Position numbers and translations under genes: made by a program. A stretch of 64,000 nt of DNA. Origin: Candidatus Magasanikiibacteriota bacterium (lineage in GTDB: Bacteria > Patescibacteriota > Patescibacteriia > Magasanikbacterales > UBA922). Where the stretch lies: the NCBI GenBank assembly GCA_016193335.1, contig JACPSK010000001.1:422962-486961 (forward strand), in the 5' to 3' direction. The notes under the pieces were generated by a model, which worked only from the letters and a program-made list of their open reading frames with translations, searched no databases and had not been told where the DNA came from. Positions 3,342 to 53,754 of the stretch are shown here, one piece after another; the stretch's first letter is position 1; every line of letters starts with the position of its first letter.

Positions 3342-3404
3342 ACTCATAAGGAATTTTAATTTCTAATTTTTAATTTTTAGTTTTTAAACAATTTTTGATG
3401 GCTT

Positions 3405-3490
3405 ATTTTTAATTATCTAAACGAAATACCGCTATCTGAAAGATACCTTCGCAGACTTGATCATTAGAAATTAAGAGAATAGAAATTCAT
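3405..3490 (-). repeat. intergenic repeat family copy A (core attctcttaatttctaat...ggtatctttcagatagcggtatttcgttt), inverted relative to copies B and C
   Basis: The reverse complement of 3413-3487 aligns at ~85% with 9178-9263. The core is flanked by AT-rich aatttttaattt/aaattgtaaattaaaaatt tracts. Confidence 0.6.
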
Positions 3491-3520
3491 TAAAAATCAT
3501 AAATTTTAAATTAAAAATTG

Positions 3521-5098
3521 TTAAATCAAAGGTCTTCCGGTCATCTCTTTGGGCGCTTTTACTCCCAAAATAGAAAGCACAGTCGGGGCCACATCCGCGA
3601 GCATGCCCACCGGATGAAGCAAACTCAAATCTCCGTTCGGCGGATCTCCGGCAGGGCCGCTCTGTCCATGATAGGCAGAACCGACAATGAGGAGAGGCAC
3701 CGGATTGGTGCTGTGTTCTTTATCTTTCTCACCGGTTTGCAAATTGATTACTTCTTCCGCGTTTCCATGATCGGCCGTAATGATGAGCACACCACCCTTG
3801 GCCAAAATTTGTTCGGCAATCTGTCCCAGGGCCTTGTCAACGGCCTCGCATCCTTTAATGGTCGCGGCGAGATTTCCTGTATGGCCCACCATATCCGCGT
3901 TCGCGAAATTAAGCATAATCAGATCATAAGAATCTGAATCTATGGCTTTGAGTACCTGCTTGGCGATTTTCAAAGCCGACATTTCCGGTTCTTTGTCATA
4001 AGAAGATACTTTCGGAGAAGGAATAATTTTACGATCCTCACCTGGGAAAGGATCCTCAATCGTGCCATTTATGAAAAAGGTAATGTGCGCGTACTTTTCT
4101 GTTTCAGCTATATGAAATTGTTTCAAACCTTTTTTACTTATCACTTCGGCGAGACAATTCGTTACCACCACTGGCGGATATGCCACCAAAACCGGTATGT
4201 CTTTTTCGTATTCTGCCATGGTCACAAACAAAAAATCTTTTATGGTTTCCCTGTGAAATTTGGCAAAGCTCGGCAGGGCGAATGCCTCAGTAAGCTGGCG
4301 GGCTCGGTCTGGTCTGAAATTAAAAAAAATCGCCGCGTCGCCTTTTTCAATCCTCGCCACCGGCTCATCCGCTTTGCCCATGACAACCGGCACGAACTCT
4401 TCATCAAAAATTCCCTTGTCATAAGAAGCCTTTACCGCGTCTTCAGGGTCTTTGTAATATTCGTCAGAGATTCCTTCGGCCATGGCCCGATAGGCCTTTT
4501 CAATTCTATCCCAACGGTTATCTCTGTCCATGGCCCAGTATCTTCCTGAGACAGAAGCAATCTCGCCTACTTTTATTTTTTTCATTACTTTTTGAAGAGC
4601 TTTCACAAAATCAATTGCGCTCTTTTCTTGAGTGTCGCGACCGTCGAGTATGGCGTGGACAAAAACTTTTTTTATTTTCTGTTTTTTGGCAAATTCCAAA
4701 AGAGCGTATAGGTGATCTTGGGCAGCGTGCACATTCCCCGGACTCAGCAAACCTATAAAGTGTAACCGCGTTTTTTGTTCTCTTACATGTTCAGCAGCTC
4801 TTAAAAAATTTTCATTTGAAAAAAAAGATTTATCCGCGATGCTCTTATTTATTCTGGGAAAAGTTTGATAATACACGCGACCCGCGCCAATGTTCAGATG
4901 TCCGACTTCCGAGTTGCCCATTTCACCGAAAGAAAGCCCTACTTCATTTCCAGACGCGTAAAGAGTCATGGCCGGATATTCTGCCATAAATTTATCCACG
5001 TTGGGCGTGTTGGCTCTCGCGATTGCGTTGCCTTCATGATCAGGCGCTATGCCCCAACCGTCAAGAACCGCGAGAACCACTGGTTTAGGATGGTCCAT
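3521..5098 (-). CDS. gpmI: 2,3-bisphosphoglycerate-independent phosphoglycerate mutase
   Basis: MDHPKPVVLAVLDGWGIAPD..NSEVGHLNIGAGRV; full-length iPGM. The ORF could extend to 5122. Confidence 0.9.
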   Translation of the reverse strand: MDHPKPVVLAVLDGWGIAPDHEGNAIARANTPNVDKFMAEYPAMTLYASGNEVGLSFGEMGNSEVGHLNIGAGRVYYQTFPRINKSIADKSFFSNENFLRAAEHVREQKTRLHFIGLLSPGNVHAAQDHLYALLEFAKKQKIKKVFVHAILDGRDTQEKSAIDFVKALQKVMKKIKVGEIASVSGRYWAMDRDNRWDRIEKAYRAMAEGISDEYYKDPEDAVKASYDKGIFDEEFVPVVMGKADEPVARIEKGDAAIFFNFRPDRARQLTEAFALPSFAKFHRETIKDFLFVTMAEYEKDIPVLVAYPPVVVTNCLAEVISKKGLKQFHIAETEKYAHITFFINGTIEDPFPGEDRKIIPSPKVSSYDKEPEMSALKIAKQVLKAIDSDSYDLIMLNFANADMVGHTGNLAATIKGCEAVDKALGQIAEQILAKGGVLIITADHGNAEEVINLQTGEKDKEHSTNPVPLLIVGSAYHGQSGPAGDPPNGDLSLLHPVGMLADVAPTVLSILGVKAPKEMTGRPLI

Positions 5099-5198
5099 AG
5101 AAAAAACATCTTGAAAAATCAATTCCTTCTCAATAGATTTTTGAAATTTTAACTTTCAATTTATAAATTTTTAAACAATCTTAGAGAATGATCCTCGC

Positions 5199-6797
5199 TC
5201 AATATCTGCCCAAGAGAGAGGCGCCGGTCATTTCTTTCGGCTTTTTTATGTTCATCAATTGTAGCAATGTAGGAGCCACATCGGCAAGCCTCCCGGTCCT
5301 TTTGCGGCAGCGCCTGCCTTTGAGATCCTGCCTAACCACTACAAAAGGTACCATATTGGCGGTATGCTCAGTTAAAGCTTCCCCGCTTTTTTCGTCAAGC
5401 ATGGTTTCCGCGTTTCCATGATCCGCCGTGATTATCACCTGTCCATATCTTTTCAAAACCGCCTGTACCAACCGATGGACTTGTTTATCAAGAAGCCGTA
5501 TGGCTCTCTGAGCCGCCTGGATATTCCCCGTATGACCAAGCATATCGGCATTAGGAAAATTTACAGCCACAAAATCATATTCCTTTTTTCGTATGTGCTC
5601 AAGTATTCGGGACGCCACAGCGCTCGAACGCATGCCCGGATTCTGTATATACGAATATTCATCCCCGGAACGAATGAGCTCCCGTTTTTCTCCATTGATT
5701 GGCTGAGGATAGCCACCATTGATAAAATAAGTAACATGAGCGTATTTTTCTGTCTCAGATATGTACAATTGTCTATAGCTTGAACCTATGGCCTTGGCCA
5801 GGCACTCTGATATATCCGGGCTTGGAAAAGCGGTAAGCATATTGGGAAGATCCGGACCAAAATCCGTCATAGCTACAAAACGTATATCTTTGGGCCAACG
5901 TTTTCTTTTGAATGATCCTGGATTTTTTTTTGCGAAATCAGGCTGGACAAAAGCCTTGGCCAATTGCCGAGCTCTGTCGCTCCTGGCATTGAAAAAAAAC
6001 ACAGCGTCATTGTCTCCTACCGTGGCTATGGGACGCCCGGCTTTGCATATGATACTCGGCTGTATATATTCATCATTTTCACCTCGGTTGTAAGCTTCGG
6101 CTATAGCGTCTTCCGCGCTTCCGTCTTTGAGACCAGAACCCAAAACCATGGCATGGTAAGCCTTCTCGGTCCTCTCCCATAATTTATTCCGATCCATGGC
6201 GTAGAAACGTCCGATGACAGTGGCGATTTTCTCGCCATTCTTCATGCGCGCTCTCAGGTTGCTGAGATATCTAACCGAAGAATGGGGAGAAGAATCTCGT
6301 CCATCAGTAAATAAATGCAAAAAAACTTTTCTATGTTTATTCCTTCTGAAATAATCCAAAAGGGCGTAAAGATGATCTGGATGAGCATGGGCGCTCTGCC
6401 CATCAGTGAGCAAACCCATAATATGGGCGGCTGTATTGTGTTTTTGTATGTGACACAGAGCTTGGTGAAAAGCTTCATTTTTAAAAAAAGTGCCGTTTTT
6501 GATCGCTTCGGAAATCATCAGCAAATCTTGTTTAAGCACCCGACCGGCGCCGATGTTTAGATGCCCTGCTTCGGAATTTCCGGCTTGCCCGGGAAACAAA
6601 CCGACATCAACTCCGTGCGCCTTAAGACGGGCGCTGGGATAAGAACGCAGATATTCAAATATATGAGGAGCCTGCGCCGGAGTTATGGCGTTTCCTTTAC
6701 GAGTGAAATCGGCCAAGCCGAAGCCATCCAAAATAATAAAAAGAGTGAGCCGCTTTTTATTATCATCACTTATCTTTTTTTTAGTTTTTATTACCAT
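5199..6797 (-). CDS. second, divergent iPGM-family paralogue (phosphoglycerate mutase-like, alkaline-phosphatase superfamily)
   Basis: LFIILDGFGLAD..GNSEAGHLNIGAGRV and a C-terminal ADHGNAE motif. It lies in tandem with gpmI. Confidence 0.8.
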   Translation of the reverse strand: MVIKTKKKISDDNKKRLTLFIILDGFGLADFTRKGNAITPAQAPHIFEYLRSYPSARLKAHGVDVGLFPGQAGNSEAGHLNIGAGRVLKQDLLMISEAIKNGTFFKNEAFHQALCHIQKHNTAAHIMGLLTDGQSAHAHPDHLYALLDYFRRNKHRKVFLHLFTDGRDSSPHSSVRYLSNLRARMKNGEKIATVIGRFYAMDRNKLWERTEKAYHAMVLGSGLKDGSAEDAIAEAYNRGENDEYIQPSIICKAGRPIATVGDNDAVFFFNARSDRARQLAKAFVQPDFAKKNPGSFKRKRWPKDIRFVAMTDFGPDLPNMLTAFPSPDISECLAKAIGSSYRQLYISETEKYAHVTYFINGGYPQPINGEKRELIRSGDEYSYIQNPGMRSSAVASRILEHIRKKEYDFVAVNFPNADMLGHTGNIQAAQRAIRLLDKQVHRLVQAVLKRYGQVIITADHGNAETMLDEKSGEALTEHTANMVPFVVVRQDLKGRRCRKRTGRLADVAPTLLQLMNIKKPKEMTGASLLGRY

Positions 6798-8981: not shown

Positions 8982-9177
8982 ACAGTGAAAATTTATAATT
9001 TGTAATTTGTAATTTTTAATTTAAATGATAATTTGAAAATCTTTACAGTGGCATTATACCATACAAGAAAAAAACAAGAAATCCATCATTTGTCTCAAAC
9101 ATAATCATACCAATGCGAGAGGAACTAACATTTTAATTTTTAATTTATAATTTTTATCCAATTTTCAATCTTTAAAC

Positions 9178-9263
9178 AATTTCTATTCTCTTAATTTCTA
9201 ATAGCTGAGTCTGCTATAAGGTATCTTTCAGATAGCGGTATTTCGTTTGGATCATTAGAAATT
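9178..9263 (+). repeat. intergenic repeat family copy B
   Basis: aatttctattctcttaatttctaat…aaggtatctttcagatagcggtatttcgtttggatcattagaaatt, flanked by AT-rich tracts. Confidence 0.6.
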
Positions 9264-9294
9264 ATGTCATTACAAATTGTTTAAAAATTATAAA

Positions 9295-13726: not shown

Positions 13727-15322
13727 TCACTTCTTTTTGTTCTTACCACCACCCTTCTTCGGGTGGTCCTCCTTGGCCGGCGCCTCGGGCGCGGGGACCT
13801 GGTCCGAGGCCGTGGGCACCTCGACCTGATCGGCCGCGGCCTCCGCCACCTCGTCGGGGACGGACGGCATGGTCTCCGCGGCATCGGCCTCGGCCGTGGG
13901 CTCCGTGGCCAGGACGACCTCGGTGGCCGGCTCCGGCGCGACGGCCATGCCCTGGTCGGCCTTGGCCACCGCCTCGTCCTCGACGACCGACGTGGGCTCC
14001 GCCACAAGGTCAGCAGACGCGACCGGCACCGCCTTCGGCTCCCGCTTGGGCTCGGGGAGGCCGAGCTTCCGGCGGACCATGCGGTCCAGCTCGGTCGAGC
14101 TCATACCCCCCGCGGCCTTACGGAAGGCCTCGGCCACCGGTTCGACCCGATCATCCGCGGGGTTCTCCTGGTGGTGCTTGGCCTGGCGCTCGGCCGCGGC
14201 CTCCTTGAGGAGGCGCGTGACATCGAGGTTCCCGAGATCCGCGTCCTCGGGGAGAGCATCGACGATGCGCCTCGCCGACTTGTTGGCGGACTTGACGGTG
14301 GGCACGCCGCCCATCCTCACCAGCCGCTCCCCGATCTCATCCACGAGTCGCTTCTTCGCCATGCGACGCGTGCGCTTGGCCTCGTCGGCCTCGGCCAGCG
14401 CCAGGAGCTCGGCACGCTCGGCCTCGATCTCCTCGCGGCTCCGCGGCCGGGGCATGCTGAAGAGCATGGCCAGCTCGGGGAGCTTGCGGGCCTCCCGAGC
14501 GATATTCATCTTCTGCGGGTCATCGGCGCTGATCTCTCGGATCTGTTCCTTGGTCATCACGCCGTGAGCCCGGAAGACCCTCTCCAGCTTGTCGAGCAGA
14601 TTCTGGAGCGTCCGAACCCGCTCCCGGTAGAGGCCGACGGCCTCGCCGGTGAGGTTCGGCTGGTCCTTCCGGAGCATGCCCTGGAGCTTGCGCATGTGCA
14701 TCTCCGTGAGGATGACGAAACGCATACCCGCGGACCACTTGGCGTTCCGCCAGACCAAGTCCGGGAAGATCCCGGCCAGCTCGGTCCGCAGGGGGTGCCC
14801 CACCTCGATGGGCCCGCGCTCCGGCGGCGGGGCGACCACGCGGGCCGTCTGTCCGCCCTCGTCCGCCAGCATGGCCGTGCCGGCCTTCGAGTGGCCGTTG
14901 CCACCGACCTTGCCCTTGGGGGTCTCGACGGCGGGCGGCGGGGCCACGGGCGCGGGCTCGGCGGGCTCCTCGTCGTCCTCGAACAGGAAGGCCATGGCCG
15001 CGGCCTGGGCCGCCTTGGCCTCGGCGATCTGCGCCTCGACGCCGCGCTTCCACTTCGTGACCATGAGGCCGCGACCCTCGGGGGTCGCGAGGAGATCCTC
15101 GGCCTTCATCGCAGCCAGACCGCGGAGGATCCGCTCGGACTTGGCCTTCGCCGCCTCGTCCTTGGCCACGGCCTGTTCGGCCTTGGCCTTCGTCGTCTTC
15201 TCCTCGATCAGCTGGACCGCGGTGGCCAGCAGCTCCTCGTTCGTGGGCTCACGGACGGTCGTGCCGTCCGACGTGAAGAAACCCGACTCGGATGCCACAA
15301 CCGCCTGCGTCTCATCGCTCAT
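13727..15322 (-). CDS. hypothetical acidic Ala/Glu/Lys/Pro-rich protein (~533 aa) in a high-GC island; no family recognised
   Basis: Continuous minus-strand ORF with G/C at nearly every third codon position. The start is taken at MSDETQAVV, and the tail ends KKGGGKNKKK. The flanks are AT-rich. Confidence 0.55.
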   Translation of the reverse strand: MSDETQAVVASESGFFTSDGTTVREPTNEELLATAVQLIEEKTTKAKAEQAVAKDEAAKAKSERILRGLAAMKAEDLLATPEGRGLMVTKWKRGVEAQIAEAKAAQAAAMAFLFEDDEEPAEPAPVAPPPAVETPKGKVGGNGHSKAGTAMLADEGGQTARVVAPPPERGPIEVGHPLRTELAGIFPDLVWRNAKWSAGMRFVILTEMHMRKLQGMLRKDQPNLTGEAVGLYRERVRTLQNLLDKLERVFRAHGVMTKEQIREISADDPQKMNIAREARKLPELAMLFSMPRPRSREEIEAERAELLALAEADEAKRTRRMAKKRLVDEIGERLVRMGGVPTVKSANKSARRIVDALPEDADLGNLDVTRLLKEAAAERQAKHHQENPADDRVEPVAEAFRKAAGGMSSTELDRMVRRKLGLPEPKREPKAVPVASADLVAEPTSVVEDEAVAKADQGMAVAPEPATEVVLATEPTAEADAAETMPSVPDEVAEAAADQVEVPTASDQVPAPEAPAKEDHPKKGGGKNKKK

Positions 15323-15497
15323 GGTCGCAATCTCCAATCGAACGCCGATGCGTTCGATATCAAAAAAATTAAGAACACACTCAAAAGCCTCGCAAACCCA
15401 AGGTACGACCCCAAGAAAGCGTGACTCGAGCCAGAGACTATAGCGAATGATAATGAATTTGTCAAGTATAGGCCTCAACAGAGCGAAAAAATCGCCC

Positions 15498-40166: not shown

Positions 40167-41105
40167 CTATTTTCGGCCGGCTTCAAAATCCAAGATCCAC
40201 TCGTTCGCCTCGGTGAACCTCTCGTAGAGCCAGGTCTTGATGGCCAGCTGATCTTCCGCCTCATCCGGCAGAACGCCAGGCGGCTCCACCAGCTCAAAAC
40301 GCACGAGAGCGCGAGTGCCCCCGTCTTGTGCTTTTCGAGCCAGCATATCCCAAGATTCGGTTTCACCATCCGGCTCAAGGCCGGGAGAAAACGCGGTGCT
40401 CATAAAGACCACCTGGGCTCCCGGAACCCCGCGGATCAAGGCCTGCGTCCCCCGGTAAGAAGGCGCGAGAGTCCGAAGGCTTTTTAGACTCAACAAAGGA
40501 TACCCCATGCCATGAAAGAAACGCAGGGCATCGGCGCGGCGGCCTCGGAAAGGCCTGCTCCTATCCGGAAAGAGCATAAAGAGCGGCGCCCGCTCACCAT
40601 TCAGGTTCGCAAGCCCTGCTTTGATAGCCGAGACCGCGGAGTCGCCCTTGCGCTTGCGGATAAACATGCCGCGAGCCAGCTTGACTCCAATGGCGAGCGG
40701 TATTGCTTGCCAGCGGTGCTTGGCGTCCGCCACCACGCGGGGCACCTTGCCACCGAACAAGTCAAGGATGTGTTCCACCATCCCCGGGATCACAGAGGTA
40801 AAGGGATGCGGGCCAATAAGCAGAATAGGTCGTTCATGGTCTATTCCCTCAAGACCCTGTGTCTCCCTTTCAACTTTCAAACCAAGGGATGGATAGCACT
40901 CCTTCATGGTCTCGACAATCCAGGACCGTACATAGGGCGCCATTTCCTTGCCCCTGATCCAAACCGCCCACAAAGCCCGCGCAAAAACCCAGCGGGTCAA
41001 AATCACCAACGCGCGCCACAAAATGCGTTTGCCGGAAACAAAATCAGGCGTTTTGCTCATCTCAGCCATGTTGCGTCCCTCCGTGTTTCCTATTTCTTCT
41101 ACCAT
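40167..41105 (-). CDS. hypothetical protein in a GC-rich island; weak acyltransferase-like resemblance (…LFPDRSRPF…)
   Basis: G/C-rich third codon positions. The family call is tentative only. Confidence 0.4.
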   Translation of the reverse strand: MVEEIGNTEGRNMAEMSKTPDFVSGKRILWRALVILTRWVFARALWAVWIRGKEMAPYVRSWIVETMKECYPSLGLKVERETQGLEGIDHERPILLIGPHPFTSVIPGMVEHILDLFGGKVPRVVADAKHRWQAIPLAIGVKLARGMFIRKRKGDSAVSAIKAGLANLNGERAPLFMLFPDRSRPFRGRRADALRFFHGMGYPLLSLKSLRTLAPSYRGTQALIRGVPGAQVVFMSTAFSPGLEPDGETESWDMLARKAQDGGTRALVRFELVEPPGVLPDEAEDQLAIKTWLYERFTEANEWILDFEAGRK

Positions 41106-52294: not shown

Positions 52295-52666
52295 TCATCC
52301 TTCCCCCGCCTCGGTGCGAGACAGCCAGGTCTCCGCGTCGTTGCTATGTCTTATCAGCATACCGCCGAGCAAGGATGCTTCCACGGCTTCATCGGCCGAG
52401 AAGACGAGCAAAACCGCTCCCGGCAGAACCGCTTCCTCGGAGGCCACATAGACCTCTAAGTCTTCGGGGGGGAACCCTTTTCCTCTCATATCTTCAAGGA
52501 GCAAATCTATCCAGATAATCTCCGCGGCCCGGAGAATCCAGGCCAGCTCGCCTGACTCCGAACGGCTCTCACAGAGAACCTGGATCTCAAACTTGCCCAC
52601 CTCGGGGCGCTCAATACAACGGACCACCAAAGGCGGCCCCAAAACCACAACTCCTGCGTTCCGCAT
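52295..52666 (-). CDS. hypothetical small acidic protein (GC-rich)
   Basis: ORF with G/C-rich codons. A hairpin gcgctcagc-cggtt-gctgagcgc lies downstream. Confidence 0.35.
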   Translation of the reverse strand: MRNAGVVVLGPPLVVRCIERPEVGKFEIQVLCESRSESGELAWILRAAEIIWIDLLLEDMRGKGFPPEDLEVYVASEEAVLPGAVLLVFSADEAVEASLLGGMLIRHSNDAETWLSRTEAGEG

Positions 52667-52735
52667 TTGCCGTCTCCTTTAGTGTTCCGAATATAGGACT
52701 CTACTGTAATAGGGACGACTTGTCAAGTAGGGGGG

Positions 52736-52939
52736 TACGGATAGCACGGATCTACAGATCAACAGATAATACAAACAGTGCATTATTGTGGGGTGTGATA
52801 CAAAATAGATAACTTTGATCTGGGAATCCGTAGATCAGTAGATCCGTGCTATTTTACAGGTCAACGAGTAATTCAAATGGTGGATTATGTAGAATGTGAT
52901 TTGGAAATCCGTAGATCAGTAGATCCGTACTATCCGTAC
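52736..52939. repeat. three copies of a ~26-32-bp GATC-rich motif (…atccgtagatcagtagatccgtRctat…): one inverted (52736-52761) and two direct (52826-52857, 52905-52939)
   Basis: Read directly, in a 310-bp non-coding region between divergent genes. Confidence 0.55.
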
Positions 52940-52998
52940 TTTACAATAGACAAAAAAACTGCTATACTAAGGGTAATTTATATTTCTTCTTTTCATAT

Positions 52999-53754
52999 AT
53001 GGGTGAAACAAGCAGATTCGCCGCGGAACCCGGGCTGAGAAAGCCAAGCGAACCGAAGCATGATGATCATGCGATTAGTCCTGGCGAAGAAGAGTGGTTC
53101 GAAACGCGCACAGACCTTCCCTATCCCACTGACCCTCAAGAAACACGGACCATGGTAGATTGGGATGGCACCGACATCGGGAGCCCCAAAGAGAGCGGTC
53201 AACTGCGCGACGACAGACCACGATCAAAGCTAGAACGGAGAAAACGATACAGCCAAGAAGAGGCTGATGTTTTGGTTGGCGACTTGGCTTCTGTGGCCGC
53301 GGAGTTAAAACAAGAACCGCAAGCCGCTTCTGACACAAAACCAAGAGCCGGGCAAAATAAGGACGTTTCTTCAACTAGCCTCAAAGAGGTCGGCATTAAA
53401 CTCGAAGTCCTCGGAAACAATCTCAATCTTCTGAAGAGACTCCAATCCATGCCGGATGATAACGCTGAAAAACAATTACACCTGCGGCAGATGGGCTTTC
53501 CCAACAATTTAGAACTTGAGACACGAATTGATCAGGTGCAAAAACAAATCATGGAAGCGCAGGAACACAGAAATTTTCTTGAAATTGCTCCTCCCACTGA
53601 TTACGAAAAGGAACATGGCAATACTGGCTTCGACCAGGCGGCATGGTTCGCCGATGAAGATGAAGCGCCACGAGTAGTCGAACGCATACTGCGTGAAAAA
53701 GGAGAACAACAACTAGAGCCGGAAGACTTTGATGAGATGAATGAAAGACTCTAA
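52999..53754 (+). CDS. hypothetical acidic protein
   Basis: ORF only. Confidence 0.4.
   Translation: MGETSRFAAEPGLRKPSEPKHDDHAISPGEEEWFETRTDLPYPTDPQETRTMVDWDGTDIGSPKESGQLRDDRPRSKLERRKRYSQEEADVLVGDLASVAAELKQEPQAASDTKPRAGQNKDVSSTSLKEVGIKLEVLGNNLNLLKRLQSMPDDNAEKQLHLRQMGFPNNLELETRIDQVQKQIMEAQEHRNFLEIAPPTDYEKEHGNTGFDQAAWFADEDEAPRVVERILREKGEQQLEPEDFDEMNERL

Follow-up and report, generated by a model that had tools for sequence, protein, structure and literature searches.

The spacer at positions 52667-52998 (332 bp) separates two divergently transcribed genes, which correspond to the NCBI entries HYY51_02120 and HYY51_02125 on a 686,675-bp MAG contig. The window, by which we mean the whole 64-kb stretch of DNA that was analysed, is a housekeeping stretch of the chromosome of an uncultured groundwater member of Candidatus Magasanikbacteria (Candidate Phyla Radiation, CPR). 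Pfam annotation covered essentially every window ORF of at least 120 aa, plus small ORFs, and revealed genes for glycolysis, ribosomal proteins, gyrB, nusG, pyrimidine and thymidylate synthesis, miaA/miaB, thrS, a PilB-type ATPase and ftsH. Among the same ORFs, none was annotated as dnaA, as a recombinase, as a recognisable transcription factor or as a Dam-type methylase, and the sole methyltransferase assigned in the window is PrmC. Neither tRNAs nor Rfam families were detected anywhere across the window.

Some genes in the window depart from the composition of the genome, which has a GC content of about 44% and GC3 values of 0.46-0.50 for housekeeping genes. An orphan gene of 531 aa at 13727-15322 (-) reaches a GC content of 0.70 and a GC3 of 0.92, is served by its own strong promoter (TTGACA-17-TATAGT at about 15466..15438 (-)), and is identical in a second MAG, GCA_964404105.1. 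Its product has no match in Pfam, PADLOC or PHROGs, and the gene seems to have been acquired recently from a donor of high GC content. Another gene, at 40167-41105 (-), encodes a basic protein of 312 aa without a family match (GC 0.57, GC3 0.65). Together with the gene on the left of the spacer (52295-52666), it suggests that compositionally foreign orphan genes are scattered in the chromosome. Elsewhere in the window, two paralogs of cofactor-independent phosphoglycerate mutase (iPGM) lie adjacent to each other in tandem, at 3521-5122 (-) and 5199-6797 (-). There are also two copies of an AT-rich intergenic element of about 130 nt (3354-3494 and 9140-9290; roughly 79-85% identical), both of which sit 3' of glycolytic genes and carry terminal inverted repeats (TTAATTTCTAAT...ATTAGAAATTAA) and runs of a TTTTAAT heptad. 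This element looks MITE- or REP-like, and its motif is unrelated to the one in the spacer.

The two genes that flank the spacer match their description in the original prediction, which had been made from the letters of the DNA, in that they are divergent, with a GC-rich gene on the left (GC 0.58, GC3 0.66) and a gene for an acidic protein on the right. The predicted isoelectric points are 4.37 for the left product (123 aa) and 4.69 for the right product (251 aa). Searches of Pfam, NCBIfam, PADLOC and PHROGs matched neither protein. Even when 1.84 billion representatives were searched exhaustively with HMMER, the 123-aa family came to only two members, and homolog and profile searches brought the 251-aa family to only three known members. 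Likewise, a protein-based search for related loci in metagenome and genome collections found none. AlphaFold2 returned an unreliable model for the 123-aa protein (pLDDT 44) and was confident for the 251-aa protein only over a helical hairpin at residues 128-196. No DNA-binding fold is present in either model, the first of which has to be read at that pLDDT of 44.

Among the sequences recovered, the only diverged version of the locus is L018, a 2.5-kb contig from run SRR22387949. Its thrS gene is 83.6% identical to that of the window at the nucleotide level (about 16% divergence), and its 123-aa protein is 72% identical in amino acids. Differences between the two versions of the 123-aa gene fall on codon positions in the order 3 > 1 > 2 (42/29/13), from which it follows that this ORF is truly coding. 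The gene also has a perfect AAGGAG ribosome-binding site 7 nt ahead of its ATG. A strong hairpin, GGGCCGCC-TTT-GGTGGTCC, is located at 52621-52639 (-) within codons 9-15 of this gene, and L018 has the same sequence there. Between the promoter and about codon 50, the two lineages share 86-94% nucleotide identity with few synonymous changes. We considered a special nucleotide constraint on the 5' half of the gene and dropped the idea, given that the sliding identity of 0.86-0.94 does not exceed that of the best thrS stretches. The 251-aa gene lacks a recognisable Shine-Dalgarno sequence ahead of its start at 52999 in both lineages, and the leader predicted for it measures only some 24 nt. In contig L003 (SRR4343435), the same gene is longer than in the window by 24 nt inserted in frame at about position 53573, which gives a product of 259 rather than 251 aa. 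The extra residues match a stretch that is present in homolog P0004 and is a gap in the window protein, and on this comparison the window strain probably carries an 8-aa deletion.

Each of the two genes is preceded by a predicted sigma70-like promoter (see the table for coordinates and hexamers). The leftward promoter is followed by the AAGGAG site and the ATG of the 123-aa gene. The promoters are arranged back-to-back with about 213 bp from -35 to -35, and all three repeat copies described below lie in the interval between them. Because the copies are transcribed by neither promoter, they are expected to act as DNA rather than as RNA. An RNA element was considered and rejected: Rfam gave no match in the spacer at the gathering score or at E values up to 1, and the repeats are upstream of both predicted start sites.

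Table. Features of the spacer and its flanking genes (positions are those of the window).
Feature	Position	Strand	Basis and description
Left putative target gene, HYY51_02120	52295..52666	-	ORF; 123-aa acidic orphan, GC-rich
Leftward predicted sigma70-like promoter	52698..52726	-	-35 TTGACA 52726..52721, 17-nt spacer, -10 TAGAGT 52703..52698; 10/12 consensus
Copy A, left arm of inverted repeat	52735..52767	-	Inverted-repeat pairs, pattern matches, sequence
Interior segment between arms, about 140 bp, opposite orientation in L018	52768..52906	.	Semi-global alignment
Copy B, middle, within interior segment, oriented as C	52816..52852	+	Direct-repeat family, 92% vs C
Copy C, right arm of inverted repeat	52897..52939	+	Direct/inverted repeats, Tandem Repeats Finder, pattern matches
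Rightward predicted sigma70-like promoter	52940..52968	+	-35 TTTACA 52940-52945, 17-nt spacer, TG-extended -10 TATACT 52963-52968; 10/12 consensus
Right putative target gene, HYY51_02125	52999..53754	+	ORF; 251-aa acidic orphan, largely disordered + coiled-coil

The spacer holds three copies of a composite motif, each of which consists of three to five contiguous, non-palindromic octamers with the consensus ATCCGTAG and a best-kept core of GTAGATCCGT, or ATCCGTA. Read toward the left promoter, copy A is composed of the units ATCTGTTG ATCTGTAG ATCCGTGC t ATCCGTAC. Copy B reads (ATCTGGGA) ATCCGTAG ATCAGTAG ATCCGTGC t and is then followed by TTTACA, and copy C reads (ATTTGGAA) ATCCGTAG ATCAGTAG ATCCGTAC t ATCCGTAC. 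The last octamer unit of the array is preceded by a 1-bp phase shift. Tandem Repeats Finder independently reports a period of 8 with 3.9 copies of ATCCGTAG at 52907-52938. The proposal that each copy is itself an octamer tandem is borne out.

The repeats are also real and non-random, as had been claimed. The 22-mer ATCCGTAGATCAGTAGATCCGT, with up to three mismatches, matches three times in the window against 0.00 expected from 100 shuffles, and the two-octamer pattern ATCNGTANATCNGTA, with up to one mismatch, matches six times against 0.17 expected, with all six matches in the spacer. The two direct copies had been placed at 52826-52857 and 52905-52939, about 79 bp apart. Both elements exist, and their coordinates are corrected here to 52816-52852 and 52897-52933, a pair of 37 nt that is 92% identical with 81 bp from start to start. 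The third, inverted copy is present as well, and its extent is corrected to 52735-52767. This copy pairs with 52907-52939 over 33 nt (88%) and also with 52826-52852 over 27 nt (89%). The arms formed by A and C are 139 nt apart and share identical runs of 10 nt at most. With only two direct copies and one inverted copy, and with no cas genes among the Pfam matches, the earlier dismissal of a CRISPR array was correct.

The positions of the outer copies relative to the promoters, and the inverted interior described below, had no place in the original prediction. Copy A lies upstream of the left -35 hexamer at a distance of 8 nt, copy C abuts the right -35 hexamer (0 nt), and the two have equal polarity in that each points toward its own promoter. 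Copies A and C therefore lie directly upstream of the two -35 boxes of a divergent promoter region, which supports the earlier suggestion of an operator-like layout.

Seven GATC sites are located in the spacer (52749, 52757, 52817, 52833, 52841, 52914 and 52922), in line with the earlier count of at least seven in 200 bp. This is the highest count per 200 bp in the window, where the next best is 5, whereas the window as a whole has about as many GATC sites as expected (258 versus 243). The tetramer arises at the octamer junctions (...TAG/ATC...). One proposal is that such a region serves as a set of replication-origin iterons or as a Dam/GATC epigenetic switch like E. coli pap or agn43, to which both the GATC density and the presence of copies in direct as well as inverted orientation between divergent genes would lend themselves. 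However, GATC is not a conserved feature: the L018 spacer keeps the octamer core and has only three GATC sites, none of them in its A copy, and the window encodes no Dam-like methyltransferase. An origin is opposed by the lack of DnaA boxes in the spacer (they occur at chance level across the window), by the absence of a dnaA or rep gene from the window, and by a GC skew with no turning point at the spacer. In addition, blastn gave no plasmid or phage similarity, and the copies, at 81-92 bp apart, are neither tandem nor helically phased, with core-to-core spacings of 81, 92 and 173 bp that are not whole helical turns. Both forms of this proposal are therefore extremely improbable. The original prediction had been right to set an origin aside, and its emphasis on GATC and Dam and its likeness to iterons are not upheld.

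Same-species Logan contigs from 12 runs match the window over kilobases at an identity of 99.7% or higher. The spacer is spanned by 16 locus records from 10 of these runs, all of them 100% identical to the window over kilobases, in the same orientation and with no contig breaks at the arms, and the second MAG, GCA_964404105.1, is likewise identical to the window. These contigs represent one clone and thus provide no independent evidence. The start of one record, L016, was examined as a possible variant junction and rejected as an assembly artefact, as its positions 1-19 are the Nextera/Tn5 mosaic-end adapter AGATGTGTATAAGAGACAG.

No further copies of the motif are present in the 64-kb window outside the spacer or in the 4.8 kb beyond the window. 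The 20-mer GATCNGTAGATCCGTRCTAT gave 0 matches in GTDB species genomes, IMG/VR and JGI metagenomes, collections from which the source species is evidently absent. These results bear on whether the region might be the remnant of a small mobile element, be it a MITE or transposon ends brought next to each other, with transposase-binding repeats in sub-terminal position, that was inserted between pre-existing promoters in a common ancestor. Terminal inverted repeats of 33 nt do bound a 205-bp unit (52735-52939) with an internal sub-terminal copy, the single-stranded DNA is predicted to fold well below shuffles (z = -4.7), and another MITE-like repeat exists elsewhere in the genome. Against this, the unit is single-copy in the 64 kb and the additional 4.8 kb, and the 20-mer search of the three collections was empty. 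Furthermore, neither lineage has a target-site duplication at the borders, no transposase is encoded nearby, and the unit occupies the same position in both lineages. We regard such an origin as very unlikely.

Both promoters are kept in L018, with the same hexamers in the same place (TTGACA-18-TAGAGT and TTTACA-17-TATACT). Its spacer is 267 bp long rather than 332 bp and differs by several indels. In this single comparison, L018 also holds three repeat copies and keeps the ATCCGTA / GTAGATYCGT core. Copy A is partly kept (TACGGATGCTACGAATCTACAGA), and the outer part of copy C is kept as ATCCGTTGATCCGTAC, 3 nt before TTTACA. The counterpart of copy B, GGTCCGGGAATTCGTAGATCCGC, is oriented as A and not as C. 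An outermost ATCCGTA unit accompanies 4/4 promoters across the two lineages, and the distance from the last such unit to the -35 hexamer is 9 nt in the window versus 7 nt in L018 on the left, and 1 nt versus 4 nt on the right. The arms are much more degenerate in L018 than in the window. By a hand count on the flipped alignment with this one relative, the repeat copies are about 76-79% conserved and the intervening spacer about 67%.

The reversed orientation of copy B is part of a larger rearrangement, which is the one surprising feature of the locus relative to its sole relative. When the interior segment is aligned semi-globally with the interior of L018, the score is 33.5 in the flipped orientation and 3.0 in the forward orientation, and 1000 shuffles gave a mean of 3.6, a standard deviation of 1.9 and a maximum of 13. 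Similarly, the global score for the whole spacer rises from 67 to 103-105 on flipping, with the breakpoints placed anywhere inside the arms. The flipped alignment includes about 60 nt of unique, non-repeat spacer that adjoins copy A in the window and copy C in L018, and independent duplications therefore cannot explain the arrangement. Identical repeat stretches are shorter than 31 nt in both assemblies, which we take to be the k-mer size of the assembler, and misassembly is thus an unlikely source of the difference. Since the lineages of the window and of L018 parted, the segment bracketed by the A/C inverted repeat has been inverted one or more times.

The original prediction had named a local slippage duplication as the outcome if neither further copies nor conservation in relatives could be found. 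No other copies were found in the 64 kb plus 4.8 kb or in the three public collections, but the three-copy architecture is kept in L018. The region is therefore more than a simple slippage duplication of recent origin. A broader version of the idea would treat the region as non-functional debris that local duplication, slippage and rearrangement driven by palindromes left in a rapidly evolving island of orphan genes of foreign composition. The octamer arrays would then have arisen by slippage, copy B by duplication of copy C, and the inversion when the template switched from one inverted copy to another. The island is indeed compositionally atypical (GC3 of 0.66 versus 0.46-0.50 for housekeeping genes) and restricted to two lineages, several indels distinguish those lineages, the repeats exceed the spacer around them in conservation by only a small margin, and no further copies exist in the sequence searched. 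However, a long spacer and a three-copy layout have persisted over a thrS nucleotide divergence of about 16%. CPR genomes are streamlined, which also counts against the retention of debris. Likewise, random duplication would not be expected to place A and C symmetrically at two -35 boxes with matched polarity. An outermost ATCCGTA unit is also kept beside every one of the promoters compared. We therefore consider it unlikely that the region is debris.

The inversion itself invites a different explanation, the main rival to the favored one, namely that the region is an inverton or a three-site, shufflon-like switch in which A, C and perhaps B would be recombination sites for a site-specific recombinase encoded elsewhere. 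A flip of about 140 bp would then reassign the two same-orientation copies, which face the right promoter here and the left promoter in L018, and thereby toggle both orphan genes. Like fimS, hin and the polysaccharide promoters of Bacteroides, the locus has inverted repeats, here imperfect ones of 33 nt, that bracket a short intergenic segment upstream of genes. Its 139 bp fall in the usual size range, as more than 75% of the invertons found by PhaseFinder are shorter than 300 bases (PMC11602134). Both orientations exist in nature, one per lineage, with breakpoints that map inside the arms. Moreover, copies B and C resemble each other (92% over 37 nt, flanks included) more closely than either resembles its own ortholog. 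Recombination or gene conversion among the copies would produce such a pattern, and the variable distance between arm and -35 hexamer would be immaterial to a recombination site.

Other observations weigh against a programmed switch. No recombinase gene was found in the 64-kb window, in the extra 4.8 kb or on the L018 contig. Both conserved promoters are outside the arms, and a consensus scan of the interior segment found no promoter in either lineage, which leaves copy B as its only directional feature. The arms are 88% identical, with the short identical runs noted above, and are still more degenerate in L018. Known invertases use palindromic core sites, to which tandem-octamer arms bear little resemblance. 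The putative target proteins look cytoplasmic and are not the surface structures that are typically phase-variable. A single orientation in the 16 records is a further, weak objection, as they come from a single clonal population and an assembler retains the majority state. Taking these points together, we doubt that the region is a recombinase-driven switch. The specific form in which outer promoters are fixed and a flipping third copy moves a tandem pair of sites between them, which would make a true DNA-inversion switch of an unusual kind in a CPR bacterium, also seems improbable. If correct, it would act as a toggle between two genes and not as an ON/OFF flip of a promoter. A full-text literature search found no paper linking invertons with CPR/Patescibacteria.

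In the reading that we favor, a divergent, lineage-restricted gene pair shares the spacer as its control region, with an operator array for a regulator encoded elsewhere and with the inversion as a by-product of inverted sites. We estimate the probability of this reading at roughly 0.45. Under this model, a sequence-specific DNA-binding protein would bind the octamer arrays cooperatively, as ribbon-helix-helix (RHH) proteins do on contiguous repeats of 7-8 bp, and would co-regulate both promoters from about -36 to -76. The interior of about 140 bp may have inverted because the outer sites form an inverted repeat, an event that would be tolerated with all three sites kept. Several observations are consistent with such a role, and no other reading explains as many of the features. 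The region is non-coding. The motif is strongly non-random, confined to the spacer within 64 kb and built with an internal period of 8. Copies A and C have matched polarity, with gaps of 8 and 0 nt, respectively, to the -35 hexamers. Both promoters and the proximal ATCCGTA unit are conserved in L018, where three copies are kept despite the indels and the inversion.

Other observations sit less comfortably with an operator array. The window encodes no recognisable transcription factor, and the flanking proteins are acidic and have no DNA-binding fold. No second motif locus emerged from the 64 kb plus 4.8 kb or from the three public collections, and hence these sequences offer no evidence for a regulon. 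The distance from the proximal unit to the -35 hexamer shifts by 2-3 bp between lineages, which would be awkward for an activator that contacts RNA polymerase. The comparison also involves a single independent relative, and the core spacings are not integral helical turns. Our estimate stays below one half because the binder was not found and the flanking proteins make poor candidates for it, because the conservation of the repeats is only slightly above that of the rest of the spacer, and because the readable genome amounts to 64 kb plus 4.8 kb.

Regardless of mechanism, the spacer contains a real and well-defined set of cis-elements before two orphan genes, for which an operator function is the best supported idea and iteron and Dam functions are unsupported. 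To our knowledge, almost nothing is known about transcriptional control in CPR/Patescibacteria, and a delimited motif set that is tied to two defined promoters could serve as concrete bait for finding a regulator. Should both orientations of the interior segment occur within a population, the locus would document phase variation through inversion of DNA in an ultra-small episymbiont, and its architecture would be an atypical one. Otherwise, it would be an ordinary lineage-specific operator region before two orphan genes.

The locus can be compared with several known systems. It differs from established invertons in the placement of its promoters outside the arms, in the lack of an identified recombinase, in its imperfect arms made of tandem octamers, and in the single orientation seen in assemblies of the window strain. 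PMC11602134 itself keeps ordinary 'inverted-repeat promoters' apart from true invertons. It resembles divergent promoter regions with shared operators in having back-to-back promoters with repeated sites between them that could serve both. In the classic examples the regulator is one of the divergent genes, whereas both products here are acidic orphans. Other parallels come from RHH proteins that recognise contiguous short repeats at promoters. MetJ uses 8-bp met boxes, and the tetramer boxes used by ParG recur with a period of 8 bp. Omega/ParB of pSM19035, likewise an RHH protein, binds 7-bp WATCACW heptads, with one dimer per heptad and with high affinity only on adjacent repeats (PMC9499535). 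Its sites are contiguous, non-palindromic repeats in either orientation that overlap promoters (PMC9499535). The array in the spacer is unlike these sites in its unrelated unit sequence, in the 1-bp phase shift before its last unit and in its location upstream of the -35 hexamers rather than overlapping them, and no RHH protein, ParA or other binder was found for it. The likeness to omega/ParB, which we adopt as a working model and not as a claim of membership, consists of non-palindromic units of 7-8 bp joined head-to-tail without a gap, three to five per site, in either orientation, with several sites per control region and all of them at promoters.
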